This document shows positions 2,765-57,843 of a stretch of DNA of 64,000 nt, one piece after another (the stretch's first letter is position 1; every line of letters starts with the position of its first letter). The stretch comes from Myxococcales bacterium (GTDB lineage: Bacteria; Myxococcota_A; UBA9160; UBA4427), in assembly GCA_012959805.1 (NCBI GenBank), contig DUCN01000018.1, forward strand, positions 21,415-85,414. Direction: 5' to 3'. Position numbers and translations under genes: made by a program. The notes under the pieces were generated by a model. The model saw only the letters and a program-made list of their open reading frames with translations, had not been told where the DNA came from and made no database searches.

Positions 2765-2769
2765 TAAGC

Positions 2770-3354: not shown

Positions 3355-3391
3355 TACAGCTCCCGGCCCCTGGGCTCGCTCTCTCATGAAC

Positions 3392-3991: not shown

Positions 3992-4004
3992 TTTTGCCTC
4001 CGAT

Positions 4005-5653: not shown

Positions 5654-5655
5654 TC

Positions 5656-5907
5656 CTAGAATTCCCTCCGCGACTCAGTAGCCATGTTCTCGCGTTCGTC
5701 TCGTCCGGCAATCAGGTCAAAAACGCGATCCTTGTCCATGACTCGAAGACCGAGCGCGAGCAGGATCTTTCGTTTCGTGTCGAGCCGACACGGCCGACCC
5801 GCCTCGACGCGGTCGATCGTCAATGCCGACAGACCCGCCTTTCGAGCAAGCTCTGCTTTGCTCATCATGAGGTTCTCTCGGAACTGTTGAACTTGATTGC
5901 TGCCCAC
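5656..5907 (-). CDS. Small XRE-family helix-turn-helix protein
   Basis: 83 aa. HTH_3-like FRENLMMSKAELARKAGLSALTIDRVEAG. Stop lies 2 nt before the pilM start, so probably co-transcribed with pilMNOPQ. Confidence 0.7.
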   Translation of the reverse strand: MGSNQVQQFRENLMMSKAELARKAGLSALTIDRVEAGRPCRLDTKRKILLALGLRVMDKDRVFDLIAGRDERENMATESRREF

Positions 5908-6181
5908 TAAATATCCTCCGACACCCGCTCAAATCTGATTCGGTCCGACAGAAGACCTATCGGACCGGAGATTCAGGGACTTGAGGGGCCTTGACGCGTG
6001 TTCGTTGTGCGGCGGATCACATCTAATGAGAGTGCAGTGCTCTCGCAGGCCCTATGACGCGCTGGGGCCAAAACCCAGCATGCAAAATATTTCATTCCCT
6101 CAGCGAATATGCCGATGAGATGCGTTGAGAGTCGCAAGCGAGTCCGCACCACGGCGCCGCGACTCGGAATGGAGTCAGCGC

Positions 6182-9150: not shown

Positions 9151-9152
9151 GA

Positions 9153-12313: not shown

Positions 12314-12373
12314 TGGACGGAGATCGAAACATGCCGAATTGGCCGATCCTCTCGAACCAGTGCCTTCGCCGAT

Positions 12374-13585: not shown

Positions 13586-13664
13586 TTTCCAGTCTCCTGT
13601 TCATCGCATCGGGGCAAGAGTCCGATCGATAGATCTTCTACTTCTTACTTCTCGTCCGATTGCA

Positions 13665-14774
13665 TCAGGGCTTTTTGACCCGACGTCCACCGGCCGCACC
13701 CATCGCTTCGGGTCCCTTATTGATGAGCTGTTGAAGCTCTTCGATATCGGGGCTACGGCCCTTCGCCATTTCTGGATCCACCAGTCTCCGGGTCACCAGC
13801 GACGCCAGACTCTGGTTCATCGTCTGCATGCCGGATTTACCCTGACCCATCTGCATTTGTGAGTACAATTGATGAATCTTGTCATCGCGCATCAGCGCCC
13901 GAATCGCCGCGTTCGGAATCATGACTTCGAGAGCCAACGCTCGACCCGGCCCATTGGCACGCGGCAGCAGCGTCTGACACATCACCGCCTCGAGTACAAA
14001 GCTCAGCTGCTGACGAATCTGTGACTGTTGATAGGGCGGGAAGACGTCGACGATTCGATTGATCGTCTGCACTGCCGAGTTCGTGTGCAGCGTCGCAAAG
14101 GCGAGATGACCCGTCTCCGCAACCGTCAAGGCGGCCTCAATCGTCTCGAGATCGCGAAGCTCACCGATCAGCACGATATCGGGATCTTGTCGAAGGATGT
14201 ATTTCAAGGCATCCTTGAACGACTCCGTATCTGACCCAATCTCTCGCTGATTGACGATGCAGCCCTTATGCGGATGCAGATACTCGATCGGATCCTCGAT
14301 CGTAACGATATGCTCGTTGCGATCTTGATTGATCCGATCGATGATGCTGGCCAGTGTCGTAGACTTTCCTGAGCCCGTCGGTCCCGTCACCAGAATCAGT
14401 CCGCGCGGCTTTTTCGAGAGTTCCTCGACTATCGGTGGCAATTCGAGTTCGTCGAAGGTCATGATCTTAAAGGGAATGGCTCGGAATGCTCCGGAAACGT
14501 TGCCTCGCTGAACGAAGACATTGCCTCGAAAGCGAGAGAGTTTCTGGACACTGAAGGAGAGATCGAGCTCATTCGTCTCTTCGAATCGATGCTTCTGCGC
14601 ATCCGTGAGAACCGAATAACAAAGCTGCTTCGTCTCTTGAGGAGACAAGGGTGGCATCTTCAAGGGATGAAGCTTGCCGTCGATGCGGAGCTGGGGCGGC
14701 GTCCCGGTCGTGATATGGAGATCACTGGCGCCCTTCTCGATCATCGCCTTTAAGAGCTGATGGATGTTGGCCAA
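13665..14774 (-). CDS. pilT: Type IV pilus retraction ATPase PilT
   Basis: TTG 14774 gives (M)ANIHQLLKAMIEKGASDLHI, the canonical PilT N-terminus. Walker A GPTGSGKSTT and IVTIEDPIEY are present. The longest ORF (to 14843) would overlap pilB. Confidence 0.9.
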   Translation of the reverse strand: MANIHQLLKAMIEKGASDLHITTGTPPQLRIDGKLHPLKMPPLSPQETKQLCYSVLTDAQKHRFEETNELDLSFSVQKLSRFRGNVFVQRGNVSGAFRAIPFKIMTFDELELPPIVEELSKKPRGLILVTGPTGSGKSTTLASIIDRINQDRNEHIVTIEDPIEYLHPHKGCIVNQREIGSDTESFKDALKYILRQDPDIVLIGELRDLETIEAALTVAETGHLAFATLHTNSAVQTINRIVDVFPPYQQSQIRQQLSFVLEAVMCQTLLPRANGPGRALALEVMIPNAAIRALMRDDKIHQLYSQMQMGQGKSGMQTMNQSLASLVTRRLVDPEMAKGRSPDIEELQQLINKGPEAMGAAGGRRVKKP

Positions 14775-14790
14775 GTTCTTCGCCCTCTCT

Positions 14791-16500
14791 CTAGTTCGCG
14801 TCCGAGGTGCTGACACGGAAGACCTCAGAGATCGTCGTGACACCTTGGAGCATCATATTCAGCGCGCTGCGGCGCAATGTGACCATGCCGCCGCGAATGG
14901 CTTCACGCTTGATCTCGGTCCCCGAAGCGCCATTGAGGACAAATTCTTTCAGCTGATCGGTCATCACCATAACTTCGTAGATGGCAACTCGGCCTTTGAA
15001 GCCGGTATCCGAGCAATTGCTACAGCCCTGGCCTTTTCTCGGCGTAAAGCTCTTGACGTCTTCTTCACTCAATCCGGCATCGAGGAGCTGCTGCGATTCG
15101 ACTTCCGGATCGTCGGCCACACATTCCGCGCAGATTCGACGAGCCAGGCGCTGAGCCACGATGCAATTCACGGCCGACGCGACCAAGAAGGGTTCGATGC
15201 CCATGTTCAGAAGACGATTGATCGTCGAAGGCGCATCGTTCGTATGCAGGGTCGAAAGAACCATGTGGCCCGTCAGCGCGGCCTTCACTGAAATCTCAGC
15301 GGTCTCGAAGTCACGAATCTCACCCACCATGATGATGTCTGGATCCTGACGAAGGAAGGATCGGAGAGTGGACGCGAAGTTCAGACCAATGTCTTCGTGC
15401 ATCTGCACCTGATTGATGCCGGCGAGATTGAATTCGACGGGATCCTCGGCGGTCGAAACGTTTTCACTGCTCTGATTGAGCTCCGAGAGGGCTGAATAGA
15501 GGGTCGTCGTTTTACCGGAACCCGTCGGACCCGTGACGAGCACCATGCCAAATGGTAGATGGATAGCTTGTTGAAAGTCGTCGAGTTGATCCTGCTCAAA
15601 TCCCAGCTTCGTCATGTCAAGCTGAAGATTGCTCTTGTCCAGAAGTCGAAGCACAATCTTCTCACCAAAGAGAGTCGGCAGGACCGAGACACGAAAGTCC
15701 ATCTCGCGACCCTTGCCCATCTTCAGCTTGATGCGGCCATCCTGTGGCAGCCGCCGCTCGGCAATGTCGAGTTCCGACATGATCTTGACGCGCGAAGTCA
15801 AGGCGTTCTTGAGCTTCAGCGGTGGCTTCATGACCTCGTAGAGAACACCATCGATGCGGTAACGCACGCGAAAGGACTTCTCGTAGGGTTCGATATGGAT
15901 ATCCGACGCCGTCTTCTTGATGGCATCCGTGAGAATCAGATTCACCAGCTTGACGACCGGGGCGTCCTCCGCATCCTTGGCCATCGCATTGGTGTCTTCT
16001 TCATCTTCTCCCGAGACGAAATCGATCCCATCATCATCGAAGTCCGCCATCACATCTTCGAGAAGATCTTCGTCCGGCTGCGAGTAATATGTCTCGATCG
16101 CCCCTCGAATGGCGTCTTCCGAGGCGACCACCGGCTGAATGTTATAACCGGTGAGAAATTTGATGTCGTCGAGTGCGAAGATATTCGAGGGATCTGCGGT
16201 CGCGAGGATCAGAGTCGATCCCGCACGATTGACCGGCACAACGCTATGTTTTTTCGCGACGTCTTCTGGGATCAGCGCAAGAACTTCGCGCTCGATCGTA
16301 AAATCTTCGAGGTTGATGGACGGAACACCATATTGTTTCGCAACGAACTCGGTGAGTTCGTTCTCGTCCATGAAGCCCAGCGCGGTAATCTGCGCGCCAA
16401 GACGTTTGCCGCCTGTCGCCGCTTCTTCACGAGCCTTGAGCAGCTGCTCGGATGAGAGCAAATTCTCTTTGACTAGCAGCTCTCCGATGCGCTCGTTCAA
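14791..16500 (-). CDS. pilB: Type IV pilus extension ATPase PilB (GspE family)
   Basis: TTG 16500 is preceded by GGAGGAG. N-terminal GSPII_E_N-like (M)NERIGELLVKENLLSSEQLLKA, Walker A GPTGSGKTTT and a CxxC..CxxC zinc motif (CAEC..CSNC). The longest ORF runs to 16602. Confidence 0.9.
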   Translation of the reverse strand: MNERIGELLVKENLLSSEQLLKAREEAATGGKRLGAQITALGFMDENELTEFVAKQYGVPSINLEDFTIEREVLALIPEDVAKKHSVVPVNRAGSTLILATADPSNIFALDDIKFLTGYNIQPVVASEDAIRGAIETYYSQPDEDLLEDVMADFDDDGIDFVSGEDEEDTNAMAKDAEDAPVVKLVNLILTDAIKKTASDIHIEPYEKSFRVRYRIDGVLYEVMKPPLKLKNALTSRVKIMSELDIAERRLPQDGRIKLKMGKGREMDFRVSVLPTLFGEKIVLRLLDKSNLQLDMTKLGFEQDQLDDFQQAIHLPFGMVLVTGPTGSGKTTTLYSALSELNQSSENVSTAEDPVEFNLAGINQVQMHEDIGLNFASTLRSFLRQDPDIIMVGEIRDFETAEISVKAALTGHMVLSTLHTNDAPSTINRLLNMGIEPFLVASAVNCIVAQRLARRICAECVADDPEVESQQLLDAGLSEEDVKSFTPRKGQGCSNCSDTGFKGRVAIYEVMVMTDQLKEFVLNGASGTEIKREAIRGGMVTLRRSALNMMLQGVTTISEVFRVSTSDAN

Positions 16501-16811
16501 CGAAACTCCTCCCCGGCCGGTTCTTGGCGGTCGCAGCGATGCGAACAAGCGGAACCATTGGGCGTCCACGCGTTCGTCCTGCTCCTCGCAAAACAAACGC
16601 AACCTCGCTGAGTTATCGGCGAAAATCGGGATGAGCTTTACTAGTCTCGTGAGCCCTCAGCGGATCTAGGGCATGATTGCCGGACATCATGATGGGGATC
16701 CCCCCCCACGCAGAGGGCTATGGTCGACAAGATCCTTTTTATGGGTCCTGCCCCCACCATCGGCATCGGAAACGGGCCCGGAATCGAAAAGTCGTTTCGA
16801 ATCGGCGAGCT

Positions 16812-18948: not shown

Positions 18949-19833
18949 TTAGTTCTGCGAAGACACTTTCGGGTCGAGATATTTAAAGAACTCGTGATCC
19001 GGCGGAACGATCATTGTCGTTCGATCACCGAGCGTCTTTCGATACGCAGCCAGACTTCGAACGAATGCGTAGAATTCTGGATTTCGACCGTAGGCATTCG
19101 CGTAGATCCGAGCCGCCTCTGCATCCCCCTCGCCTCGCAAGACCTCCGAATCCGCATTCGCCTGAGCAACGAGCTCTCGCGCCTCTCGATCCGCTTTGGC
19201 CCGAATTTCGCGCGCCTCACGCGCACCCACCGCTCGCTTCTGTCGAGAAATCGCCCTGCGCTGTTCGCGCATCTGCTCGAAGGTCGCGTTCTCCGTAGGC
19301 AGGGGTAGCTCCGTGCGATTGATTCGAACGTCGACCACTCGAATTCCATTCGACGTCAACTCCAAGGTCGCCTGATCATCAAGCGAGTCGAGGGCCTCTG
19401 CACGCGCCAGCAATTCCGCCATCGTGAGCGTGCCCACGGCGTCGCCGACTAGAGAACCGACGGTTCTTTGGATCCGCTTGCGCGCCTCCTCGATGCCCTT
19501 CGGAAAACTTCGCCGAAATTCGAGGGGCGAATCAATCTGCCAAAGAACGTAGTAGTCGATGATCAACCGCTCGTTTCCGGCGATCTCGATCTCGGCGGCA
19601 GCCGCGTTCAGATACTGGATCTTCTTGTCGAAGACCTGCACTTCATCGATCAGCGGAATTCGCAGTTGAGCGATCCCCGGCTCCTCGATCTCCGCGATCG
19701 GATTCCCTAGACGCAAGATCAGCCGATATTCGTCCACTCGGTTGATCACGAGTGGGCCAAAATCAATCTGCGCCCCCCAGATGATTCCAACAGCGGCGGC
19801 CCCTAACACGATCGGCACGAAGAGAAGCCTCAT
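18949..19833 (-). CDS. hflC: SPFH/band-7 protein HflC
   Basis: N-terminal TM, SPFH core and a coiled-coil tail. ATGA-type overlap with the upstream hflK. Confidence 0.75.
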   Translation of the reverse strand: MRLLFVPIVLGAAAVGIIWGAQIDFGPLVINRVDEYRLILRLGNPIAEIEEPGIAQLRIPLIDEVQVFDKKIQYLNAAAAEIEIAGNERLIIDYYVLWQIDSPLEFRRSFPKGIEEARKRIQRTVGSLVGDAVGTLTMAELLARAEALDSLDDQATLELTSNGIRVVDVRINRTELPLPTENATFEQMREQRRAISRQKRAVGAREAREIRAKADREARELVAQANADSEVLRGEGDAEAARIYANAYGRNPEFYAFVRSLAAYRKTLGDRTTMIVPPDHEFFKYLDPKVSSQN

Positions 19834-20876
19834 TGATTCGCCCCCACCGCTGGCACTTGATTTCGCAGAGGCAAGAGCGGCAGCATATTCACGGTATTCG
19901 GCTCGACGATCATCTTCTCGATCCCGGGCAGGATCTCTTCCATCGTTTCGAGATATAGGCGTCGCCGAGTCACCTCGGGCGCACTCTCGTATTCGGTCAG
20001 CAGCGCAACGAAGCGAGTGGCCTCGCCCCGAGCCTCGATAATGCGTGCGCGCTTAAAGGCTTCGGCCTGTTCGCGAATCTCCACCACTTCCGATCGCGCC
20101 CGTTCGAGGATTTCCTGCGCATCACCGGTAGCTTCGAGCGAAGACCGTTTCCCGTCCTGCCCAGCGCTCACAACATCTGCAAAGGCCGCGCGCACCGCGT
20201 CGGGCGCCTGGGGTTTCTCAAGATTGATTCGTCCAACTTCAAAAGCGGGTTCGTAGCCGACCTCTGCCAGGTAGGAACCCAACATGGTCTCTAGAAGGGC
20301 TCGGACTTCGCGTTCAATCTCATTTCGGTCCTGAGACAGAACAGAATCGATCGTCTTTTTTCCGATCACCGTTCGCATGGCCGCTTCGGTTGCGTCATGC
20401 AAGATTGCGCTCGGCTCATCCATCGCGAACCGATAGGCGAAGGCACTACCAACCTTGTACTGCAACTCATATGCGACATTGACGATGTTGCCGTCTCCCG
20501 TCTGGACTGCATCTCGCTTGATGTTGTCGGCAATCTCGAGTTCTTCTTCGTTCACGGGAGCACCCGGGGTCGACTGACTTGGCTGAGCGCCAAAGGACTC
20601 CGTCCGTAGCTCGCTCGTGTTCACGACCTCATGACTCTCAAGCGGCGGCGGCAAATGCCATCCAATACCTTCGATGATCTGTGTTCGTTCGTACGCCCCG
20701 AGGCGAAGGACCACCGCGGATTCGCCGGGGTCGAGCTGGTAAACGCCTTGCCATCCCCAGCCCAGCAGGACTCCAAGCGAAGCCAGAAGGAGCAAAGTAT
20801 TGAAGATCATACGAGTCAATCCCCGCCCCGCCTTCTCCGCGGCGCTCGGATCTCTTTCGCTCTTGCCCTTCGCCAA
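19830..20876 (-). CDS. hflK: SPFH/band-7 protein HflK
   Basis: TM followed by an SPFH domain (VYQLDPGESAVVLRLGAY..). Paired with hflC. Confidence 0.75.
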   Translation of the reverse strand: MAKGKSERDPSAAEKAGRGLTRMIFNTLLLLASLGVLLGWGWQGVYQLDPGESAVVLRLGAYERTQIIEGIGWHLPPPLESHEVVNTSELRTESFGAQPSQSTPGAPVNEEELEIADNIKRDAVQTGDGNIVNVAYELQYKVGSAFAYRFAMDEPSAILHDATEAAMRTVIGKKTIDSVLSQDRNEIEREVRALLETMLGSYLAEVGYEPAFEVGRINLEKPQAPDAVRAAFADVVSAGQDGKRSSLEATGDAQEILERARSEVVEIREQAEAFKRARIIEARGEATRFVALLTEYESAPEVTRRRLYLETMEEILPGIEKMIVEPNTVNMLPLLPLRNQVPAVGANQ

Positions 20877-21689
20877 TTATGCATCCCCGCCGTCGGGCTT
20901 GGAAGCTCCGCTTCCGGGAGTCGATGCTTTTCCGGCCGAGACGTTAGTCAACTGGTCGTAGAAGGGACGGATCAGATCGATCGGAAGGGGAAATATGGTG
21001 GTGGAGCTTTTGTCTCCGCCCGCGATCTCAGCCAGTGTCTGCAGGTACCGTAACTGCAGACCCATGGGTTCGGTTGCGAGCACCGCCGCGGCGTCGGCCA
21101 ATCGCTGTGCCGCCAGATATTCTGCATCGGCCAGGGTAACCTTCGCGCGCTTTTCCCGCTCTGCTTCGGCCTGCTTCGCCATGACGCGCTGCATCTCCTG
21201 GGGCAGATCGATTTGCTTGAGTTCCACGGAACGCACTTTGACGCCCCAGGGCTCTGTCTGAAGATCGATGATCTCCTGAAGCTGCTGATTGATGCGTTCG
21301 CGGTCGGCCAGCAACTGATCGAGTTCCGCCTGTCCACAGACACTTCGCAGCGTCGTCTGAGCAAGTTGGGACGTTCCGTAAAGGTAATTCTCGACTTGAA
21401 TGACCGCCTTCTCCGGATGCAGAACCCGGAAATAGAGCACCGCATTCACCTTGACCGAAACATTGTCGAGTGTGATGACCTCTTGAGCGGGAACGTCCAT
21501 CACGATCTCGCGTAGCCCAATCCGAACCATGCGATCAACGCCGGGGATGATCCATCGAAGACCGGCCGAACGGACACCCGCGTATCGACCCAGGCGAAAG
21601 ACTACGCCGCGCTCGTATTCGGCGAGAATTCGGACACCAAAAAAGAGCAGCGCCATAACGACGCCCAAGAAAATCAGAATTCCCAACAA
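20877..21689 (-). CDS. Stomatin-like SPFH protein (slipin, QmcA/YbbK type)
   Basis: [26 protein letters not shown] signature and a coiled-coil C-terminus. Immediately downstream of nfeD. Confidence 0.85.
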
Positions 21690-21743
21690 AACCTACCCCT
21701 CCCGCGACTGATCTCTAGGAGCCAGCCATTTCGGTTCCACAAC

Positions 21744-23165
21744 TCATGCCTCGGACAAGACTCGACGCACGCGAAGCGTGAGTCCCTTGACTTCAAGGAT
21801 CTCGACCGAATCACCAGCTCGAATCGTCTCATCCGCAACACTATTCCAATACTCACCCCGCACGAACACTTTACCTTTGGGATCGATCGCGGATTCGCAA
21901 CGCCCAACCAAGCCGATCATTTCGTCAACGCCCGCAGTTTGCTCGGCTCGGAAGGTGCGGCCAAGACTGTAGACGATCAAGAGACCAAGAACCGTCATGG
22001 CCGCCGTGATCGGAACCAGGACTTCCCAGAATGAAACAGTCAAGTCAGAGACCTCAGGTCGATCGAAAACCATCGTTCCCCCGACCAGAAAACAAGTTAC
22101 GCCTGCGGCAAAGAGAACGCCGAACGAAGTGATGAAGAGTTCGGCAATCAATAATCCGACGCCAATCAGCACCAGCAACCCTCCCACCCACGAAAAGGGC
22201 AAGATCTGCAACGCGAATCCAAGCAGAACGAACGCGGCGACTCCAGTCGCACCCGGGATGATCATTCCCGGACTCTGGAACTCCATGTAGAGACCGATCG
22301 CGCCGATCGCCAGAAGCAGTGTCGCAACATTGGGATCCGAAAGGAAATTGAATATCGACTGCAGCAGCGTCATCTCTATCGGAACGAGAGTCACATTCGC
22401 AAGATCGAGTTCGCGTTCGACGTCATTGAGCTTCACGATTCGGCCGGAGATCGAGGCAATCAGCTCGGCGCGGCTTCCCGCCATCAAGTCGATGACATTC
22501 AGCTCCAATGCTTCTTCAGCCGTGACTGCGACAGAATTTCGAACTGCCTCACCTGCCCATTCAACGTTGCGGTTTCTCTGCTTCGCAATCGACTCGACGT
22601 AAGCGGCGAGGTAATTCTCGATTTTCTGTTCGACGATGGCCTTGTCCGAAACAGCGCCGCCGTCTTCTCCACCGCCTGGAGCGGACGGCGATTCGCCGCC
22701 GCCGAATAGACTGACGGGATGGGCGGCACCAATGCTGGTGCCCGGCATCATCGCCGCGACATTGGCGGCCAGTGTGATGAAGGTCCCCGCGGAGGTGGCG
22801 GATGCCCCGCGTGGCGTTACAAAAACGATTGTCGGCACGGTCGAATTAAGCATCGCCTTGATGATGTCCTGGGTTGCCGAAACCAAGCCACCAGGGGTGT
22901 CCAATTCAATGAGAACGCCCGCCGCATTTTCCGCTTCCGCGCGTTCGATCGCACCGATCAAATGATCTGCGCTAGCCGGATTGATCGATCCGTCGATCGT
23001 GACGACTAGGAGTTCATTCGCCGTCGCGGCGGTCTGCGCCGTGAACCCGAGAAGAACACAGAGAAAGCCAACCATGACACGACGACGCAAACCGAGCGAA
23101 ACGCTCATCCCGCTTGCTGTCCTCGGATCACACTGATGATTCACGTCGAAATGAAAATCGTTCAC
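21744..23165 (-). CDS. Long-form NfeD membrane-bound ClpP-class serine protease
   Basis: N-terminal ClpP-like domain (LDTPGGLVSATQDI), a multi-TM middle region and a C-terminal NfeD OB domain. Partner of the stomatin-like gene. The signal-like MSVSLGLRRRVMVGFLCVLLG suggests a possible start at 23108. Confidence 0.8.
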   Translation of the reverse strand: MNDFHFDVNHQCDPRTASGMSVSLGLRRRVMVGFLCVLLGFTAQTAATANELLVVTIDGSINPASADHLIGAIERAEAENAAGVLIELDTPGGLVSATQDIIKAMLNSTVPTIVFVTPRGASATSAGTFITLAANVAAMMPGTSIGAAHPVSLFGGGESPSAPGGGEDGGAVSDKAIVEQKIENYLAAYVESIAKQRNRNVEWAGEAVRNSVAVTAEEALELNVIDLMAGSRAELIASISGRIVKLNDVERELDLANVTLVPIEMTLLQSIFNFLSDPNVATLLLAIGAIGLYMEFQSPGMIIPGATGVAAFVLLGFALQILPFSWVGGLLVLIGVGLLIAELFITSFGVLFAAGVTCFLVGGTMVFDRPEVSDLTVSFWEVLVPITAAMTVLGLLIVYSLGRTFRAEQTAGVDEMIGLVGRCESAIDPKGKVFVRGEYWNSVADETIRAGDSVEILEVKGLTLRVRRVLSEA

Positions 23166-45689: not shown

Positions 45690-46499
45690 ATGGGCGGGTC
45701 ATTCATGGCGCAAACGACAGGAGAACGGGTCGAGATGGAAACGCTGTTGCGTGAAGCGAAAATGAAACATGATGAGATTCCACCGGATCTCAAAGAGAAT
45801 ATCATCCTCGAGCACGCACCCCTGATCCGCTACATCGTGAATCGAATCGCTGTCCGCCTGCCCTCTCATATCGACCTCGACGATCTACATAATACGGGCG
45901 TCATCGGATTGATGGATGCCATCGAAAAATACGATCCCGAGAAGAATTGCAAATTCAAAACCTATGCAGAGTTCCGAATCAAGGGCGCCATTCTGGATCA
46001 GCTGCGAAGCCTGGACTGGGTTCCCCGAAGTGTTCGCCAGAAGGGCCGCAAGCTCGAGAATGCGTATGGAGAAGTCGAACAGCGACTGGGACGTTCGGCC
46101 AACGAAGACGAAGTCGCCGATTCGCTCGGCCTGGAACTCGACAAGTTTCACGTCCTGATCAATCAGGTCCGAGGAATCTCACTGGTCAACCTCGAAGAAA
46201 TTCGCGGAACGAATTCGGACGGCGACCGCGCTGGCACCTTCGCCGACATCATCGAAGACGTCCATGCGGAGAATCCGTTCGCCTCCTTGAAGTTGATGGA
46301 GACGAAGCATGTCATCTCGGACACGATCGGTTCCCTTCCCGAGAAGGAACGCCTAGTCGTTTCGCTCTACTACTACGAGGATCTCAACATGAAGGAGATC
46401 GGCAATATTCTCGGCATCACAGAGAGCCGGGTCTGCCAGATTCACACCAAAGCCGTAATGCGACTTCGATCCAAGCTGAAGGGCCTGGTCGATAGATAG
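45690..46499 (+). CDS. fliA: FliA/WhiG-type (sigma-28 family) RNA polymerase sigma factor
   Basis: Region 2 (DLDDLHNTGVIGLMDAIEKYDPEKNCKFKTYAEFRIKGAILDQLR), the FliA-typical DWVPRSVRQK, and region 4 (LPEKERLVVSLYYYEDLNMKEIGNILGITESRVCQIHTKAV). Confidence 0.8.
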   Translation: MGGSFMAQTTGERVEMETLLREAKMKHDEIPPDLKENIILEHAPLIRYIVNRIAVRLPSHIDLDDLHNTGVIGLMDAIEKYDPEKNCKFKTYAEFRIKGAILDQLRSLDWVPRSVRQKGRKLENAYGEVEQRLGRSANEDEVADSLGLELDKFHVLINQVRGISLVNLEEIRGTNSDGDRAGTFADIIEDVHAENPFASLKLMETKHVISDTIGSLPEKERLVVSLYYYEDLNMKEIGNILGITESRVCQIHTKAVMRLRSKLKGLVDR

Positions 46500-46586
46500 A
46501 AGACCGCGAACCCTCGCATTCATCGGTCGCAGAATACGGCCCGCAAGACACAGAGGATTGGGCGTTCAAGTCTATTCGACGAACGC

Positions 46587-47321
46587 TCAGTCCTCTTTTT
46601 CGTATCGAACTAACAGAACAGTCGTATTGTCGGCACCGCCCGCTCGATTCGCCGCATCGACCAACCCGGCAGCCGCTGCCTCGAGATCGGGTTCATCGCA
46701 GACTCTCTGCGCAATTTCTTCGTCTTCCAGATGAGTCGTCAGCCCGTCCGAACAAAGGATGAAAACATCATCGACCTGAGGCGTCATCTCAGCCAGATCA
46801 GGCTCGATTCGAGGTCGCACACCCAGCGCCCGGGTCAGGACATGACGATGGGGATGCTGCCGCGCGTCTTCTTCACTGATCTCCTCGCGCCGCAGAAGTT
46901 CACCGACGATCGAGTGGTCGTCGGTCAGACCGCGAAGTCTCCCGCGACGAATCAAATAGGCTCGACTGTCGCCGACGTGAGCGAGGGCCAGACGCTTCCC
47001 GGCAAACAACAAGCCCACCAGAGTCGTCCCCATCCCGGAGAGCTCGGGCTTGGCGGACGCGGCAGCAATAATCTCCCGGTTGGAGCATCCCACCGCATGC
47101 CGAAGGCGTTCGGCCAGGCTGACGTTTGCGCCCTGCAAGGCCTCGATGTCTCGGATGACGGCTTCCGTCGCGAGCTCGCTCGCGACCTGACCGGCCTTGT
47201 GCCCACCCATGCCATCGGCGACTAGGTAGAGCCCGAGGTCCGGAACGATCGCGTATCGGTCCTCATTGGCCCGTCGGCACATTCCCACGTGGGTACTGGC
47301 AGCGGAGCGGAGCAGCATCAA
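46587..47321 (-). CDS. PP2C-family serine/threonine phosphatase
   Basis: STHVGMCRRANEDRY, VADGMGGHKAG and GGADNTTVLLV motifs. Confidence 0.9.
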   Translation of the reverse strand: MMLLRSAASTHVGMCRRANEDRYAIVPDLGLYLVADGMGGHKAGQVASELATEAVIRDIEALQGANVSLAERLRHAVGCSNREIIAAASAKPELSGMGTTLVGLLFAGKRLALAHVGDSRAYLIRRGRLRGLTDDHSIVGELLRREEISEEDARQHPHRHVLTRALGVRPRIEPDLAEMTPQVDDVFILCSDGLTTHLEDEEIAQRVCDEPDLEAAAAGLVDAANRAGGADNTTVLLVRYEKED

Positions 47322-47549
47322 AGGTCTCCGTGGGGCGTACAGACGGCGCCCTCTCTTATCTTATATCGGATCGGTGGTCCCAGGCTTGACTCCCTGGAGC
47401 CGGTTCCACGTCCGCGCGACGCGGATCCCAGACTTTTCCCTCGCGAACAGGCAAAAAATCATTCAATGATGCGCAAGACCGCGACGATAAGAGCTGTGAA
47501 CGGTACGCTGATGCTCGACGAACCTGAAAGGGTTCAAATGGGGGGATCC

Positions 47550-49433
47550 ATGTCCAAGACGCTTCTCTTGGCCGACGATTCGGTCGTAATCCAAAAACTC
47601 GTGGGACTTTCGTTCGCGAACGAAGACGTCCACATCGTGACGACGGATAACGGCGACGACGCCGTTCTGAAGGCGCGAGAGATCACGCCCGATGTAGTGC
47701 TCGCCGATGTCGTCATGCCGGGCAAGAGCGGCTACGAAGTCTGCCAAGCCATCAAGCAAGATCCGGCCCTTGCTCATATTCCCGTCCTTCTGTTGACCGG
47801 CACGTTCGAGGCCTTCGACAAAGCCCGGGCAGCCGCGGCCGGAGCCGACGGCCAGATCACCAAACCGTTCGAAGCGCAATCTCTAGTCGAGCGCGTCAGC
47901 GAGGTCATGATCGCGTCTGCAGCCGCGGCGCCTAACGCCATCTCCGACACACCCGTTGCCGCATCGATCGGTGAAAGCACGGACAGCTTCGCCGAGTTTG
48001 ATTTCTTTGATCCAAGCGTATCCACGCTTTCCGGTGAAAAGTCGAGTGCGCTGCTCACCGATGCATCGCAGACCTTGGATCAGACTCCGGCGATCAGCAT
48101 TTCAGACGAGCCCCTCTTCGGGGCCCCCGTCGACGGCGCAACCGATGAACTCGATACTCAAGGCCGGGGATGGGCCCTGGACGACTCCGTTGAGGTGGGT
48201 TCTGCGGGCGAATTCGCGGCTGAGAGTCTCCAACCATTGGGGCTCGAGAACCTTGATCGTGACGAGACCATCGTGGCACTGCCCGAGCCCGTCACACCCA
48301 TTCCTCCCAGCAATAGCGATCCTCTGGCGGCTTTCGAGGCCGATCTCGTTGCAGCGGACAGTTCTGTCGCCTCTTCCCTCGCCGTCGATTTCGATTCTAC
48401 GCTGGATGCCGTTCCATCAGATCCCAGTGCGACGATCGTCGCAGGAATCGATGACACGAATGCCTCGACGGCCCCCGACTACGGGTTCGATTCGTCGGAC
48501 AACATGGGGAGCGATTCGGTCGAGCCCACCGACGAGACCTCGTCTTTGCGGCCATCAGCCCCGTCGACGCCGTCCAATCTCATGCACCGAAGGGACAGCG
48601 AGTTCGAAGATTTGACGATACATATGCCTTCAGCCGCAATCGATCAGGCCGTGGCGATGGCTCCGAGCCCGAAGGGCGTCGTGAGCCCTCCCCTTGAAAG
48701 CGCGGGCCAGGGCGATGCAGGCGCCACCGTCACCGCCAATCTCGACGTCCAGCTCTCCGATTCGCCCCAGGTGAGCCACCCTCTCGACCTCGGGCCTTCC
48801 AACGTCTCGGCGGACGAACTCGACTTCACCTTTGATGTTTCCGAGCAAGCATCGCCGGCTGATATCGATGCGGCACTTGGCGATTCTTTTTCATCCCTGA
48901 TGGACATTTCGGAGTCTGAGATCCTCGGTGGCTCGTCGAATTCGGAAGCTGGCTGGGAAGCTGAATTCGCTTCGGCCGAATCCAATCCGGCGCCCGCCGG
49001 CACGGATTCAACCTTCGACGATGTGTTTGCGGCCGGTTATGACGTCTCGATCAGCGACCTCGCCACAGCACCAGCTGCACCCAAAACCTCTGCGGCTGCC
49101 GAGCAGCCCGCCCCTTTCGATCAGCCGGAAACTTCGGCGGGCGGCACATCCATAGATTCCGGGGTCAGCGGTCTCGACATCGATATCGAATTGCCTCGTC
49201 AGACTGTCGGCGATGCTGACAACATTCGAATTTCCGATCTCTCGCCCATGATCGAACAACGCATCCAGGAAACCCTCGAAAAGGTCGCCTGGGAGGCCTT
49301 CTCTGACCTTTCCGAATCCATCGTGAAACAAGTCATTGGGCGAGTCGAGCAGATCGCTTGGGAAGTCATTCCCCAAATGGCGGAGACCCTCGTACGCGAA
49401 GAGATTCGCAAGATGAAGGGCGAGAACGACTGA
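47550..49433 (+). CDS. RomR-like response regulator (receiver, long acidic disordered linker, conserved C-terminal helical tail)
   Basis: The ATG 47550 start follows a GGGGGGA tract. Receiver KTLLLADDSVVIQK..VVLADVVMPGKSGYEV..LLLTGTFEAFD..ITKPFE. About 430 aa of D/E/S/P/A-rich sequence nearly devoid of K/R follows. The C-terminus is IEQRIQETLEKVAWEAFSDLSESIVKQVIGRVEQIAWEVIPQMAETLVREEIRKM. The longest ORF starts at 47289. Confidence 0.55.
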   Translation: MSKTLLLADDSVVIQKLVGLSFANEDVHIVTTDNGDDAVLKAREITPDVVLADVVMPGKSGYEVCQAIKQDPALAHIPVLLLTGTFEAFDKARAAAAGADGQITKPFEAQSLVERVSEVMIASAAAAPNAISDTPVAASIGESTDSFAEFDFFDPSVSTLSGEKSSALLTDASQTLDQTPAISISDEPLFGAPVDGATDELDTQGRGWALDDSVEVGSAGEFAAESLQPLGLENLDRDETIVALPEPVTPIPPSNSDPLAAFEADLVAADSSVASSLAVDFDSTLDAVPSDPSATIVAGIDDTNASTAPDYGFDSSDNMGSDSVEPTDETSSLRPSAPSTPSNLMHRRDSEFEDLTIHMPSAAIDQAVAMAPSPKGVVSPPLESAGQGDAGATVTANLDVQLSDSPQVSHPLDLGPSNVSADELDFTFDVSEQASPADIDAALGDSFSSLMDISESEILGGSSNSEAGWEAEFASAESNPAPAGTDSTFDDVFAAGYDVSISDLATAPAAPKTSAAAEQPAPFDQPETSAGGTSIDSGVSGLDIDIELPRQTVGDADNIRISDLSPMIEQRIQETLEKVAWEAFSDLSESIVKQVIGRVEQIAWEVIPQMAETLVREEIRKMKGEND

Positions 49434-52322: not shown

Positions 52323-52480
52323 GCCAGCACGCGCCCCACAAGCGCCAAAGGGAGAAATGGCGGCAGCACAGGCCGTTGGGTTGCCGATACCCTGAGAACT
52401 CCCTTACGGCTGGACTGAGCCGATTTCCGAGCCCTGCCCCGGCGGCTATAGTCGCATCAAGTCGTGGACTTGCGAGGCCG

Positions 52481-53683
52481 ATGCACTCTGCGGAGCGTCT
52501 CCCAACAGCTCGCGTGATCAAGCGACCAATCACCGACCTGAGGGAATTAGCACACGGAAAAATTGAGATCTCACAGGTCTCGAAGAAGCCGGGTCGGAGA
52601 TCACCATTGTCAGAAGACACCTCGAGCCATCGCCGCAAGGTCAAGCTCCAACTCTCTGCCCAGGCCGAGAAATACGCGCGTCCCGACGCCCCGATTGAGG
52701 CCCGGAAAATGGCAGCCCGGGGTGCGCTGCCCCTGGAACCGATCGAGCTCGCCACCGTCCTATTCGTCCTGGCCAGCGATTCCGAACCCCAGGTCAAAGA
52801 CACCGCACGACAGAGCCTCGAGGACCTCCCTCAGCACGTACTCGATATCGTCCTCCGCGGACCCGCTCATCCGGCCCTGCTGTCCTTTCTGGCCCACGTC
52901 CACAAGGAATGCGAAGCCCACTGCGAAGCCATTGCCCTGAATAATCAGAGCGACGATGCCACGATCGCCTGGCTCGCCACTCTGCCCCATAGCCGGGTCA
53001 TCGATATCATCAGCCAGAACCAGCAGCGCATGTTGCGCAACGAAGAAATCGTCGATGCGCTAGGCGGGAATCCACTAACGGGGCGCGCCGTCATCGAACG
53101 CATCCTCAGTTTTCTGGGCCTCGAAGAAAGAGAGACGACAGACGACGAAGATGAGGGGTTGGCCGAAGCGGAGGCTGAGGCCGCCGTGCTGGATATACTC
53201 GGTGGCGATATGGCCGACATTGCCCGACTGCTCGTCTCAGAGCGGAACTCCGATGGCGACGAAGAGGAAGGCAGGAACCTACTCGCAGTCATCGGGAATA
53301 TGTCGGTGATGCAGAAGATCAAGCTTGCCCGACTCGGCGGCAAGGAAGCCCGCTCGCTGCTGATTCGAGATCGAAATCGAATCGTTGCGACCGCCGTCCT
53401 CGCCAGCCCCAAACTCACCGAGACCGAGGTTGTTACCTTCGCGCAGAATCGCTCGATGGGGGACGAACTGCTGCGCATCATTTCGAATAATCGCGAGTGG
53501 ACCAAGAACTACCAGACCAAGCTCGCGCTCACTATGAATCCGAAGACACCCATCCCCCAAGCCATCAAATTCATGAACTACCTTCAGGATCGCGACCTCC
53601 GAGTCTTGATGAAGAGCAAGGATGTGCCGAGCAACATCAGCACTCATGCACGGCGGATTCTGACCAAGAAGGGAAAACTCTAG
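52481..53683 (+). CDS. Alpha-helical repeat (HEAT/ARM-like) protein of unknown function
   Basis: Repetitive helical segments (..EPIELATVLFVLASDSEPQVKDTARQSLEDLP..; ..RNRIVATAVLASPKLTETEVVTFAQNRS..; ..TKLALTMNPKTPIPQAIKFMNYL..) and a central acidic stretch. The start is uncertain (ATG 52481; the longest ORF starts at 52376). Its stop overlaps the next start. Confidence 0.5.
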   Translation: MHSAERLPTARVIKRPITDLRELAHGKIEISQVSKKPGRRSPLSEDTSSHRRKVKLQLSAQAEKYARPDAPIEARKMAARGALPLEPIELATVLFVLASDSEPQVKDTARQSLEDLPQHVLDIVLRGPAHPALLSFLAHVHKECEAHCEAIALNNQSDDATIAWLATLPHSRVIDIISQNQQRMLRNEEIVDALGGNPLTGRAVIERILSFLGLEERETTDDEDEGLAEAEAEAAVLDILGGDMADIARLLVSERNSDGDEEEGRNLLAVIGNMSVMQKIKLARLGGKEARSLLIRDRNRIVATAVLASPKLTETEVVTFAQNRSMGDELLRIISNNREWTKNYQTKLALTMNPKTPIPQAIKFMNYLQDRDLRVLMKSKDVPSNISTHARRILTKKGKL

Positions 53684-54714
53684 TGGCCGATGTCAATGCT
53701 CGAATTCTTCTCTGGGGCATCCAAGGCGCTGGTGCGACAACGAGCCTCCAGACCATCCATGCCAAGCTACGGCCCGACCTGCGTGGCGACATTCAGATGG
53801 AACCGACGCGCCTCGATCCCACCGTTCAGTACGAAATTTTGCCAATCACGCTGGGCGAGTCTGGCTCGGTGGGTCCCCAGTTGGAGATCATCGCGGTCCC
53901 CGGTGCCCCGGATCAGGCCATGACGCGCAAGCAACTCCTCGACGGCGTGGATGGAATCGTCATCGTCTTAGATGCCTCTCCGGAACGCATCGACGCGAAC
54001 TACAAAGCCGTCGATGAATTGCGCGCATCACTCGCCGCCTACGGCGAACGAATCGATTCCTTCCCCATCGTCCTGCAATACAACAAGCGGGATATGGCCG
54101 ATCCATTTGCGATCGAAGAGCTGCACCGAAGAATCGGACTCGACAAAGCCGCCGTTTTCGAAACGATCGCCACCACCGGCCACGGAATCCTGGCCACCCT
54201 TACGACCATCTCCAAGCATGTCGTTCGGACGCGAAGAATGGTCGGGACGACATCCGAAGCAGAGGACGAAGCCACGCAGGACACTGCCCAGGCGGCTACC
54301 GATCTCGAAGATCAGGCTGGCTCCTCTCATGAGATTCTCGAAGCGGCCATCCTTGCCGACGGGGAGGATCACGATGGAGCCGATCTGGCCGAACTCATCG
54401 AACTCGAACCCATCGATACGACCCAGCCGAATTGGGGGTCGACGACGAATTCCGAGATGAGCATCAACACGGACAGCATGGCGGACATCACCCTCAAGAC
54501 GACTGACGCTCACGTCGAGGCAACTCCGAACATCGAATCTAAACCCGAAGCCAGCCTCGGCGAGGCATTTCACATCGTGTCTGCGGGACAAGCCGAAATC
54601 GACCTTACGGGCGGGCTTCGATTGCCCCTCGTGTTAGGTGATGAAGCAGGATCGACTCGGACCGTCGTCCTTACCCTTCGCCTCGACTCCCTCACTCAGG
54701 ACGGCGAGGACTGA
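53683..54714 (+). CDS. MglA-family small GTPase-like protein with degenerate P-loop and acidic C-terminal extension
   Basis: GTG 53683 overlaps the upstream TAG. ILLWGIQGAGATTSL (Ala where the Walker-A Lys should be), AVPGAPDQ (MglA has TVPGQ), LLDGVDGIVIVLDAS, an intact QYNKRD, and TTGHGILATL. About 150 additional C-terminal residues are rich in D/E. Confidence 0.7.
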   Translation: MADVNARILLWGIQGAGATTSLQTIHAKLRPDLRGDIQMEPTRLDPTVQYEILPITLGESGSVGPQLEIIAVPGAPDQAMTRKQLLDGVDGIVIVLDASPERIDANYKAVDELRASLAAYGERIDSFPIVLQYNKRDMADPFAIEELHRRIGLDKAAVFETIATTGHGILATLTTISKHVVRTRRMVGTTSEAEDEATQDTAQAATDLEDQAGSSHEILEAAILADGEDHDGADLAELIELEPIDTTQPNWGSTTNSEMSINTDSMADITLKTTDAHVEATPNIESKPEASLGEAFHIVSAGQAEIDLTGGLRLPLVLGDEAGSTRTVVLTLRLDSLTQDGED

Positions 54715-56993
54715 TGCGGCGCCGGCTCGGAATCTGGGGAGCAAGCGAAGAGTCGCTACGCTTGCTGCGCCTACTGGTGGGAAATCCAGACATCGAAATC
54801 AATCGGATCTACGATGCCGACGTTGCCGCCGCTCTCGAGCGAGCGCGCGCGATCGGCGTCGAGGTCGCTCATCGCATCGCGCCTCTACTAGTCGATGACG
54901 TCAGCGCTTTCTTTGCCGAACAAGACTTCGATGCGATCATCGATTCCGAGGGCGATTTTGCCAGCCATGCACCGGCGGGACCCCGCTCAGCCCTCCAGGT
55001 CGTCACACCTCTCACAGCGCGACTGCTCTGGGGCTACGGCGTCGCTCCCAGAGATCGAAAGGCCGAGCTCCTGCAGGCCCTGCATGAAGTCGTCGAATCC
55101 GTCGATCTTACGATCGAGGCCGACGAACTCTTCGACCGGATGCTCGAGATCGCAGTCGGGGTAACGGGCGCCGAAGGGGGCAGTCTCATGCTGCTCGACA
55201 AGACCGGAGAAGTTTTGCGTATGCGCGTCGCGCGCGGCGTCGAACCCGAACTCTGGCCCAAGATACGAGTCGCCCTGGGTCAGGGCATTTCTGGACGCGT
55301 CGCCGCGCTGGGTCGTCCAATCCAGATTCGAGGTCGGGCGGATCGACGCGATTATGATCTCACCCGCGAACGCGTCGATGTCGAGTCCGCACTCTGCGTT
55401 CCGCTCATTCATAAAGGGCGCGTACTGGGCGTCCTCAACGTTCACCATGCAACGCGCGCCGACGTGTTCGCCGACGAAGACCTACGCTTCATGCAGCAAT
55501 TGGCAGGCCTCGACGCTCAGATCATTGCTCGGGCACAGGAACACACCGCCCTGCGTAGTCAGGCCGCACGCTATGACGCCGTTCGCGAAGTACAAAAACT
55601 ACTCCGCGGTCCCGCCATTCTTTCCGAGCGGCTCGAAGAGTTCTGCGGGTTTGTCGCTGAACAGACGGGCAACGGAATCGTCCATCTCTATCTCAAAGAA
55701 TCGGATGGCTCGCTGCGGCTCTCGGCAACCTCCCTCCAAGGCGGCGGCTTTGGTGACGAGTACCGCCTTCCGCTTGGGGCGGGCATCGACGGCGCGGCAA
55801 TCAAATCCCAGTCCGCACAGATTCTCCAGCACGACAACGGGCGCCTCGGCTACGCCGCCCTTCCCCTTCTTGCGGGCACACAACTGATCGGACTGCTCGC
55901 GATTCAAGTGGGGACAACGGGCGAACTCACCAGCGGCAGTCTCGAGCGCTGGCAGGAAATTGCAGCCGCAGCGGCAGAAACCATTGCGCGAACAGACCGC
56001 GAGAGTCGCTTGGCAACTCGAGCGGAACGCATCAATGCCATCAATGAAACCTCGATTCGGATGCTTTCCTGCACTGAGGCAAACGAAGTCGCCCGACTCG
56101 CTACTTCTTCTGTGGCAATGATCCTTGAAGCCGACCACGCCGTTCTTCGCCTGCAAGACACGACGACTCGACGTTATTCCATCCGGTCCTATTTCGGCGC
56201 CGCCGAAGGCTCCTCCCAGGAGGCACTCTTTCGCCTCGACAAAGCAGTCACAGTGGATGCGATTCGCCGTCGAACCCCACACCTGATTCAGGATGCCAGC
56301 CTCGATCCGAATCTCAGCGAATTCACTGAAGACATGCGTTCAGTTCTCACGGCACCGATCAAGCGGGCCGGCAAGGTCATCGGAGTCGTCTCGATCTACG
56401 ACAAGGTCGCGCTCGACCGATTTTTCGCGAGTCGCTTTGACGACGAGGACTTGCAGGTTTTTGGACGATTCGTCGCCTACGTCGAGCGCGCCCTCGACCA
56501 CGCCTATTCACATCGAGAGAACCAGCAACATCGCAATTTTGATGAAGAAACCGGACTCCCGAATGAGTCGTATCTCGAAAAACGCCTTCTCGAGGAGATC
56601 GCCCGCGCCGCCGGACGCGAAGACGCTCTCGCCCTTTGTGTCTGCCAACTCGAAAATCGAGACGAACTGACTGCCGAAGCCGGAGCAGGTCACGCGGGTC
56701 GAGTGATCACCGCGTTGGCCGAAGCGCTGCGAACGCATTTGCGTGACTTCGACGTGCTCGCAAGAATCAGCCTGGATCAATTCGCCATCATGATGCCGGA
56801 ACCGGGCAGAACACCCGGGGAACGCGTATTCGAACTGGCGCGTGCGGTCGCCGATGCGATTTCCAAAGATGACGCGCTCAACCAGCCGGTCCGCGTTGGG
56901 TTGGCTTTTGGATACGGTGCCCATCCCGCCGATGGCAATGAGAAGGATGCTCTTCTCGCCCACGCCCAGAAACCCCGAATTCGTATGGTCTAA
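54714..56993 (+). CDS. Multi-GAF protein with C-terminal degenerate GGDEF domain
   Basis: The ATG overlaps the upstream TGA. Three GAF-like modules are present (..GGSLMLLDKTGEVLRM..LCVPLIHKGRVLGVLNV; ..IVHLYLKESDGSLRL..AALPLLAGTQLIGLLAI; ..HAVLRLQDTTTRRY..LTAPIKRAGKVIGVVSIY). The GGDEF-fold C-terminus (DEETGLPNESYL..) has SLDQF (56769-56783) in place of GGDEF. Confidence 0.7.
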   Translation: MRRRLGIWGASEESLRLLRLLVGNPDIEINRIYDADVAAALERARAIGVEVAHRIAPLLVDDVSAFFAEQDFDAIIDSEGDFASHAPAGPRSALQVVTPLTARLLWGYGVAPRDRKAELLQALHEVVESVDLTIEADELFDRMLEIAVGVTGAEGGSLMLLDKTGEVLRMRVARGVEPELWPKIRVALGQGISGRVAALGRPIQIRGRADRRDYDLTRERVDVESALCVPLIHKGRVLGVLNVHHATRADVFADEDLRFMQQLAGLDAQIIARAQEHTALRSQAARYDAVREVQKLLRGPAILSERLEEFCGFVAEQTGNGIVHLYLKESDGSLRLSATSLQGGGFGDEYRLPLGAGIDGAAIKSQSAQILQHDNGRLGYAALPLLAGTQLIGLLAIQVGTTGELTSGSLERWQEIAAAAAETIARTDRESRLATRAERINAINETSIRMLSCTEANEVARLATSSVAMILEADHAVLRLQDTTTRRYSIRSYFGAAEGSSQEALFRLDKAVTVDAIRRRTPHLIQDASLDPNLSEFTEDMRSVLTAPIKRAGKVIGVVSIYDKVALDRFFASRFDDEDLQVFGRFVAYVERALDHAYSHRENQQHRNFDEETGLPNESYLEKRLLEEIARAAGREDALALCVCQLENRDELTAEAGAGHAGRVITALAEALRTHLRDFDVLARISLDQFAIMMPEPGRTPGERVFELARAVADAISKDDALNQPVRVGLAFGYGAHPADGNEKDALLAHAQKPRIRMV

Positions 56994-57182: not shown

Positions 57183-57843
57183 ATGGCGAAAAGTCATTTC
57201 ACGATCATGGGTGCGGGCGAAGTGGGTTGCCACCTAGCACGCACGCTCTCCGCAGACGGCACTCAGTGCCGAAGCAGGCCATTGGACTGCGGGGGCACTC
57301 GGCGACGCACTCTTTCAGATCGTCTCGATCGTTACAACGACTGGCTTCGCCACCGCAGACTTCAATCTTTGGCCCGACTCGACCCGAACGCTTTTGGTTT
57401 CAGTCATGGTGATCGGCGGCTGCGCGGGATCCACGGCTGCCGGATTCAAGATCGCTCGAGCGCTGATTGCTTGGCGAGCCGCAATGCGCGAAGTTCGACT
57501 GACCTACCGGCTGAATTCCGTCATTTCGGTTTCCGTCGATGGAACGTCGGTTCCCGAGGATTCGGTACGAGGCGTCGTCGCGCTCTTCTTCCTTTGGATC
57601 ATCGCCTGGATCGTCGGCGCACTGCTGCTCTCGATCGGTGAGGCTGACATCCTCACAGCCGGCACGGCCTCCATCGCGACGCTTTCCAATATCGGCCCGG
57701 GCCTGGGCATGGTCGGTCCAGTCGGCGATTTCGCATTTTTCAGCGACTGGCAGAAGGCAGTCATGATCCTGCTGATGTGGCTCGGACGACTCGAGTTCTT
57801 CGCCTTGCTCGCCATCATGCATCCGCGATTTTGGAGGCGCTGA
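57183..57843 (+). pseudogene. trkA'-'trkH remnant (internal deletion joining the trkA N-terminus to the trkH C-terminal third, out of frame)
   Basis: ATG 57183 encodes MAKSHFTIMGAGEVGCHLARTLSADG (TrkA Rossmann GxGxxG), then the frame degenerates. From about 57268 another frame reads ..ALGDALFQIVSIVTTTGFATADFNLWP..VMVIGGCAGSTAAGFKI..LSNIGPGLGMVGP..LGRLEFFALL..FWRR, the last ~190 aa of TrkH. That frame has a TAG at 57235-57237. Confidence 0.65.

Follow-up and report, generated by a model that had tools for sequence, protein, structure and literature searches.

The window, a 64,000-nucleotide stretch of contig DUCN01000018.1 from a Myxococcales bacterium, carries three consecutive open reading frames, ORF1, ORF2 and ORF3, which lie head to tail on the plus strand at 52607 (or 52481)-53683, 53683-54714 and 54714-56993. 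Together they represent an MglA-family protein turned pseudoenzyme within a conserved three-gene operon, and no literature on this family was found. MglA is the model for the setting of polarity by a bacterial Ras-like GTPase. The 343-residue product of ORF2 is a true MglA homologue, of the MglA lineage, and the analysis supports the view that it is unable to act as a canonical MglA/MglB switch. On the aligned sequences, the hallmark of the ORF2 family is the combined loss of the intrinsic arginine finger and the catalytic glutamine, whereas loss of the Walker-A lysine is a recurrent secondary event. An earlier note, made from the letters of this DNA, had proposed a pseudo-GTPase-centred, non-canonical signalling module with a dead P-loop. 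The MglA lineage, the coupled gene unit and the absence of a canonical switch all stand, but the P-loop loss does not define the module.

The kinship of ORF2 with M. xanthus MglA, suggested before, is borne out by both sequence and structure comparisons. In a phmmer search of PDB sequences, MglA was the sole significant match (5ymx, 6h17 and 3t12, E 7.5e-30 to 2.7e-28), with ORF2 residues 3-184 aligning to the M. xanthus protein (5ymx, E 7.5e-30) at about 32% identity over 180 residues; Pfam yielded a marginal Arf match at most. A Foldseek comparison, which the earlier note had recommended, placed MglA structures at the top. The AlphaFold model of ORF2, built from 28 homologues, superposes on MglA 6h17 with a template-modelling (TM) score of 0.81 on target, and the best 14 matches are all MglA (TM 0.75-0.83 on target). 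Model confidence, expressed as the predicted local distance difference test, is 80-94 in the G domain (residues 1-185, 53683-54237) and 84-93 in a C-terminal module. Between them lies a variable, disordered linker (residues 186-292) that contains 26 D/E residues against 2 K/R and encloses a short conserved helix motif (SSHEILEAAILA; SSHEILEAAILADGE at 54322-54366). The C-terminal module (residues 296-337, 54568-54693), delimited from the family alignment and the AlphaFold model, is a confidently predicted three-stranded beta unit of about 45 residues that ranks among the best conserved parts of the family, and it has no match in Pfam or the PDB. The tail earlier described as D/E-rich is therefore indeed acidic, but it is more than filler, since it ends in a folded domain.

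The G domain retains part of the GTPase signature and has lost the residues that drive catalysis in MglA. The guanine-specificity motif G4 (NKRD, 54082-54093) is intact and invariant among close homologues. In switch I/G2 (TRLDPT, 53806-53823), Thr47 is kept and Pro46 stands in place of the intrinsic Arg finger R53 of MglA, a residue that is conserved throughout Group 1 of the MglA family (PMC4316618). Switch II/G3 reads AVPGAPDQ (53893-53916), exactly as previously recorded, with the VPG core kept and Ala75 in place of the catalytic Gln82. The Walker-A motif GIQGAGAT (53716-53739) carries Ala18, encoded by GCG at precisely the position given before (53734-53736), instead of Lys. When the 120 closest ORF2 homologues were aligned to MglA, the Arg-finger position was Pro in 119 and the catalytic-Gln position was Ala in 113, while the family has retained the G2 Thr along with the VPG core and NKRD. 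The Walker-A Lys of GxxxxGK[ST] is present in 114 of these proteins, and its loss was consequently rejected as a family hallmark: the dead P-loop of the window protein is real, but it is not a defining feature.

The six Lys-less sequences comprise the window protein, a near-identical Ala protein from another European Nucleotide Archive (ENA) sample, the sister protein P0002 (Ser) and three separate ones in which the residue is Thr or Ser. Placed on a neighbour-joining tree, the close homologues indicate at least four independent losses of the Lys. The codons at this position are AAG (Lys) in relatives, ACG (Thr) in locus L005, GCG (Ala) in the window and L034, and TCG (Ser) in L033, all of them single-step neighbours by way of ACG. 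The L034 contig, an independent ENA sequence, has the same GCG and, set against the window, shows three amino-acid differences besides synonymous ones. Between two Lys-less lineages, the ratio of non-synonymous to synonymous substitution rates (dN/dS) in the G domain is 0.114 at a dS of 0.69, compared with 0.05-0.09 among Lys-bearing pairs and an overall range of 0.05-0.16; the ORF2 gene is therefore functional and its constraint at most slightly relaxed. Three findings mark the Ala as genuine: the independent GCG of L034, the Ser of the sister lineage and the purifying selection on the G domain. It had been anticipated that Lys in orthologues would betray an assembly error; Lys was found, in the large majority, yet the L034 contig shows the Ala to be real. 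In M. xanthus, the K25A substitution in MglA leaves no detectable protein and no motility (PMC3000849), and the contrast with an Ala that is selected here implies that the G domain of the ORF2 family became independent of that contact.

These losses belong to a wider clade. An exhaustive HMMER search of 1.84 billion cluster representatives returned 87 proteins below 1e-30, and motifs were counted in the best 150 cluster representatives covering them, of which 64 lack both Arg and Gln and 69 carry the canonical DRT/TVPGQ. In a tree of 138 G domains, one split separates 63 of the 64 sequences that lack Arg and Gln from all 68 canonical ones. The recovered MglA-like proteins that are extended and have DRT/TVPGQ keep all catalytic motifs and fall on the other side of the tree from ORF2. 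Of the 64 Arg/Gln-less clusters, 12 (19%) have lost the Walker-A Lys, compared with 0 of 69 canonical ones (Fisher p 8.6e-5), and in further clade members the Mg-binding Ser/Thr is replaced by R, L or Q, or the G4 Lys by H or R. Because these Lys, Mg-site and G4 losses are restricted to the clade, the constraint on its nucleotide-binding motifs is relaxed, and by this tree the Arg- and Gln-less proteins are a monophyletic MglA offshoot. One distant member, P0251 (L029, 6001-7074), retains the Arg finger (TRLDRT) but no longer the G3 Gln (AVPGAAEH), and it may represent an intermediate stage in which loss of the Gln preceded that of the Arg.

ORF3 (54714-56993, 759 residues, 73-94% identical in close relatives) supplies a second degenerate domain to the operon. 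The array of three GAF domains and a GGDEF domain reported earlier is confirmed by Pfam, with a strong match for GAF1 (55119-55526), a weak one for GAF2 (55665-55985, E 0.0017 when scanned alone) and E 1e-11 for GAF3 (56076-56498). The GGDEF domain (56535-56969, residues 608-752) matches PF00990 with E 6.6e-16 and GGDEF structures in the PDB down to E 5e-10. Read directly, its former GG[DE]EF motif is SLDQF (56769-56783). The DxD..ND positions of GGDEF cyclases serve in metal and substrate binding, and ORF3 (56643-56672) has Q, T and A where these are conserved in the active cyclase 6zxm. Across ORF3 homologues, the active-site motif is effectively random (DKDEF, GRDEF, EENAF, WPEEF, EGNGF), while the inhibitory RxxD site, RDFD in the window (56742-56753) and five residues upstream of the former active site, is invariant: every homologue examined has R[DEG][FY]D there, down to the relatives that share 38-55% identity. 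A lost active site combined with a kept RxxD is the signature of I-site receptors of cyclic di-GMP (c-di-GMP). Sequence conservation thus supports catalytic degeneration of the GGDEF domain, and because RxxD is invariant while the active-site motif drifts, ORF3 is probably a c-di-GMP receptor acting through the I-site. The more general suggestion of a receptor or scaffold is thereby retained as to the dead cyclase site and narrowed to a specific putative ligand.

The known degenerate-GGDEF receptors PopA, PelD, SgmT and CdgA share with ORF3 the fold, the lost active site and the RxxD five residues upstream; to our knowledge, no named I-site receptor has its N-terminal domain and three GAF domains or is coupled to a G-domain protein. 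The N-terminal domain (54714-55088) spans about 125 residues, and no Pfam or PDB match was obtained for the N-terminal 130 residues. We take it to resemble the N-domain of GFO/IDH/MocA-type Rossmann proteins, with a degenerate glycine motif GIWGASEES, and if this resemblance is true it would be a third dead domain in the operon. A correlation between Lys loss in ORF2 and extra decay of the GGDEF motif was also considered and rejected, as L005, which has Thr for Lys, carries the family-typical GRDEF.

ORF1 completes the trio with an all-alpha, ARM/HEAT-like solenoid of 358 residues (52607-53683). The TTG at 52607 is the more likely start, because it is preceded by GGAG at a distance of 7 nt and gives a product close to the typical homologue length of 357 residues; similarity to homologues begins about 40 residues inside the version that starts at the alternative upstream ATG (52481). 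The AlphaFold model is entirely helical and consists of an N lobe (52655-53116, confidence above 84), an acidic disordered linker (53117-53278) and a C lobe (53279-53671). The family shows 73% mean column identity. Searches of Pfam, NCBIfam and the PDB gave no sequence match, and Foldseek returned weak armadillo/importin-type solenoid matches, so that assignment to the tetratricopeptide repeats (TPR) or another known repeat family was rejected.

The three genes are joined by overlapping stop and start signals, and direct reading reproduces the positions given before: TAGTG at 53681-53685 (TAG 53681-53683, GTG 53683-53685) between ORF1 and ORF2, and TGATG at 54712-54716 (TGA 54712-54714, ATG 54714-54716) between ORF2 and ORF3. 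Purine-rich, Shine-Dalgarno-like sequences, GAAGGGA and GAGGA, precede the starts of ORF2 and ORF3. The one-base overlap between ORF1 and ORF2 occurs in 32 of 36 related loci and that between ORF2 and ORF3 in 29 of 33, both down to about 31-44% identity. All 28 species-representative loci, found in metagenome-assembled genomes (MAGs) of uncultured Myxococcota or 'Deltaproteobacteria' with a few labelled Spirochaetaceae, carry nadC, birA, coaX and ORF1-3 wherever the contig extends. The trio is also kept in distant relatives (31-44% ORF2 identity), including a closed 5.83-Mb contig. The co-conservation check proposed in the earlier note therefore turned out in favour of the trio, and these data support its reading as a co-conserved, translationally coupled unit. 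Upstream of ORF1, an Rfam search detected no riboswitch or known RNA at E up to 1, and a scan for promoters and terminators around the trio gave no signal above shuffled expectation.

In distant relatives the gene order runs from a FliA-type sigma factor through a PP2C phosphatase, a RomR-like gene, nadC, birA, coaX and an EF-G paralogue to ORF1, ORF2 and ORF3, and the window has the same order minus the EF-G paralogue. At the head of the conserved block formed by the RomR-like gene, nadC, birA, coaX and ORF1-3 stands the RomR-like response regulator (47550-49433, plus strand; Pfam Response_reg). Its product consists of a receiver domain, an acidic, Pro- and Ser-rich region of about 450 residues and a conserved helical C-terminus of about 60 residues, with receiver and C-terminus 67-89% conserved in relatives. 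RomR itself is built from an N-terminal receiver, a non-conserved Pro-rich middle and a conserved Glu-rich C-terminal tail (PMC2034494, PMC6428892), so that the two proteins match in architecture only; NCBIfam and PDB searches for a RomR-specific model produced generic receiver-domain matches alone. The idea that romR lies beside nadC in M. xanthus was discarded, as it has other neighbours there (PMC2034494). The RomR-like gene is located four genes upstream of the trio, with housekeeping genes between, and where the trio is conserved it invariably follows such a gene. Both it and a type IV pilus cluster had been pointed out in the window, and both are present; the RomR-like gene is linked to the block, but the pilus cluster lies 36 kb from the trio.

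Beyond these genes, the window contains further features. The block head (45690-49433) begins with a FliA/WhiG-type sigma factor gene (45690-46499) and a minus-strand PP2C phosphatase gene (46587-47321) before the RomR-like gene, an order likewise present in the closed MAG locus L036. The spacer between coaX and ORF1 measures 285 nt (52323-52606), and the window's subclade has no EF-G paralogue there. Downstream of ORF3, at 57183-57843, a 5' stub of trkA (about residues 10-35) is fused in a different frame into the last third of trkH (residues 335-526); trkA lies directly 3' of ORF3 in L001, L002 and L003 (in L003 up to the contig end), and trkH is also found in L001 and L002. By comparison, about 2.4 kb would have been deleted at the junction in the window, unless the junction arose in assembly. 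The type IVa pilus cluster occupies 1-16602 on the minus strand and looks complete, with pilQ (cut by the window edge), pilP, pilO, pilN, pilM, pilC, pilT and pilB, and it holds two sensor-kinase/NtrC-type regulator pairs (pilS/R), one regulator being on the plus strand. At 18949-23165, also on the minus strand, three consecutive SPFH/Band-7 genes and an NfeD membrane protease gene lie beside coaBC and coaD-like genes.

The proposed role of the trio is a stoichiometric signalling complex built on an inert, MglA-derived G domain and controlled through ORF3 by c-di-GMP and GAF ligands, a proposal that we consider evenly poised. In most members, the G domain would bind GTP constitutively and serve as a fixed 'on' adaptor, and in the window's lineage it would bind nucleotide weakly or not at all, being held in shape by the ORF1 solenoid, by its own C-terminal helix and beta module, or by both. 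Regulation would then have shifted from the nucleotide cycle to ORF3, whose I-site may sense c-di-GMP and whose GAF domains may detect at least one small ligand. The ligand state of ORF3 might change what the complex binds or where it sits. The most speculative step is the output, which could consist in recruiting or positioning polar machinery together with the RomR-like protein.

This last step is modelled on Bdellovibrio, an organism without MglB, in which MglA, the TPR protein Bd2492, the degenerate-GGDEF receptor CdgA and RomR interact at the invasive pole (PMC3983030). The hub offers the best functional analogy, as its members correspond in kind to the proteins of the window: an MglA-type protein that has no MglB, a partner made of helical repeats, a degenerate GGDEF protein and a RomR-type regulator. 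However, its genes are dispersed and its MglA keeps the GTP-binding residues, whereas the trio is adjacent and its ORF2 is Lys-less. The partners are likened by type; Bd2492 is a TPR protein and ORF1 is not by sequence, and CdgA (GVNEF) lacks the triple GAF array of ORF3. A link of the trio to polarity or to type IV pili is something that we infer, from this analogy and from the RomR-like gene.

Comparison with other G-domain proteins places ORF2 closest to Group 1 MglA, represented by the proteins of M. xanthus and T. thermophilus. It has the same fold and its best sequence and structure matches there, and it shares the G2 Thr, NKxD and the xVPGx core of G3 that marks Group 1. It differs in having Pro for the Group 1-defining Arg, Ala for the G3 Gln and, in the window, no Walker-A Lys, and in being extended at the C-terminus by about 160 residues, among them a conserved helix and a beta module; it has no adjacent MglB gene and is encoded in an operon with two partner proteins. 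In SofG, too, extra regions are attached to the MglA-type G domain and no MglB gene lies beside it (PMC4316618), and ORF2 resembles it in both respects. A search of the literature for a bacterial MglA-type pseudoGTPase or an MglA-like/GAF/GGDEF module found nothing relevant. In eukaryotes, pseudoGTPases include the Rnd/RhoH class and CENP-M. The ORF2 family similarly keeps the small-GTPase fold under selection after motif loss; it differs from them in being bacterial and MglA-derived and in showing graded, recurrent motif loss within one clade. By its sequence record, a fold kept under purifying selection and motifs lost, ORF2 fits the pseudoGTPase concept.

Several points weigh against the proposed complex. 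Changing the Walker-A Lys to Ala lowers nucleotide affinity in Ras-like proteins and need not abolish binding. Most members of the family keep G1, the G2 Thr and G4 and may still cycle with a GTPase-activating protein (GAP) in trans. On this basis ORF2 could remain a GTPase switch, with the GAP donating both Arg and Gln and another residue or partner compensating for the Walker-A Lys. The retention of GxxxxGK[ST] and NKxD in most members is in keeping with such a switch, as are the Group 1 Rup GTPases, which also lack the G3 Gln and have been proposed to obtain it in trans (PMC4316618). The switch is nonetheless unlikely, given the repeated, clade-restricted losses of the Lys and the altered Mg-site and G4 residues, which never appear in canonical MglA-like proteins. 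Additionally, no lineage-specific gain of Lys or Arg near the P-loop is visible in the window or in L033 relative to L035. A Roadblock/LC7 gene of the MglB type is missing as well: in agreement with the earlier reading, no Robl_LC7 domain was detected among the 57 window ORFs scanned against Pfam, and none among the called genes beside six distant homologues. A coupled MglB gene is the usual state for Group 1 MglA without being obligatory, SofG and Bdellovibrio MglA being orphans.

A further objection arises from the EF-G paralogue of about 690 residues, which lies directly upstream in most distant relatives, overlaps in L031 and points to a different functional context. It is situated between coaX and ORF1 in L029 (2746-4815), L030 (2552-4627), L036 (6772-8838), L037 (4778-6829) and the contig of P0296. 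In L031 (3935-6004) and L032, a distant lineage in which ORF1 is absent, its stop overlaps the start of the MglA-like gene. The module might accordingly be unrelated to polarity and work with this paralogue, for instance in translation-linked or stress signalling, the partner having been lost in the window's lineage. This appears distinctly unlikely, as the window's subclade, with 28 species-level loci, keeps the conserved trio without the paralogue, and the RomR-like gene is linked just as consistently. The weak resemblance of ORF1 to ARM/HEAT proteins (TM about 0.2), and its failure to qualify as TPR by sequence, also count against the proposed complex.

Synteny across the clade extends from the sigma factor gene through to that for ATP sulfurylase, housekeeping genes included, so that gene order by itself argues only weakly for a functional link. 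The three genes could be mere neighbours in a strongly syntenic clade, forming no complex or pathway, just as nadC, birA, coaX, sat and other unrelated genes are equally syntenic in the same loci. Given this synteny, more weight falls on the overlaps, conserved at both junctions, and on the fact that the trio stays together as its surroundings turn over: trkAH, ald and the EF-G paralogue are present in some loci and absent from others, upstream and downstream genes are replaced, and those downstream depend on the lineage. ORF1, moreover, has no Pfam family, and the MglA-like gene occurs solely in this context in every locus examined, making mere neighbourhood very unlikely. Finally, an assembly or sequencing error at the Ala codon, or decay of ORF2 into a pseudogene, could draw on the Lys of most orthologues, but both can be dismissed in view of GCG in L034, TCG in the sister lineage, the intact frame, the retention of all remaining family-invariant residues and the dN/dS of 0.11.

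The trio thus presents a natural experiment, in which the MglA fold has outlasted its catalytic Arg and Gln and, in several lineages, the P-loop Lys as well. It could reveal the route by which a GTPase turns into a pseudoenzyme and the input that comes to regulate it instead; c-di-GMP is the candidate here, by way of a putative I-site receptor from the same operon. The family provides matched Lys-bearing and Lys-less orthologues (P0003 versus the window protein and P0002), and it adds ORF1 and the ORF2 C-terminal module as new protein elements, neither of which has a Pfam family. Although the family is confined to uncultured organisms, it should be of interest to the polarity, GTPase and c-di-GMP fields. 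In the broadest interpretation, offered tentatively, an MglA offshoot would have given up GTP hydrolysis once and abandoned nucleotide binding repeatedly, with control passing to the c-di-GMP/GAF sensor and the solenoid partner. The resulting second-messenger-gated polarity adaptor would stand in for the MglA/MglB/RomR-RomX nucleotide cycle across a large uncultured branch of the Myxococcota, and no bacterial pseudoGTPase lineage would have been described before it. Should the connection to RomR and the type IV pili prove true, second-messenger signalling would be tied directly to the polarity machinery in Myxococcota.

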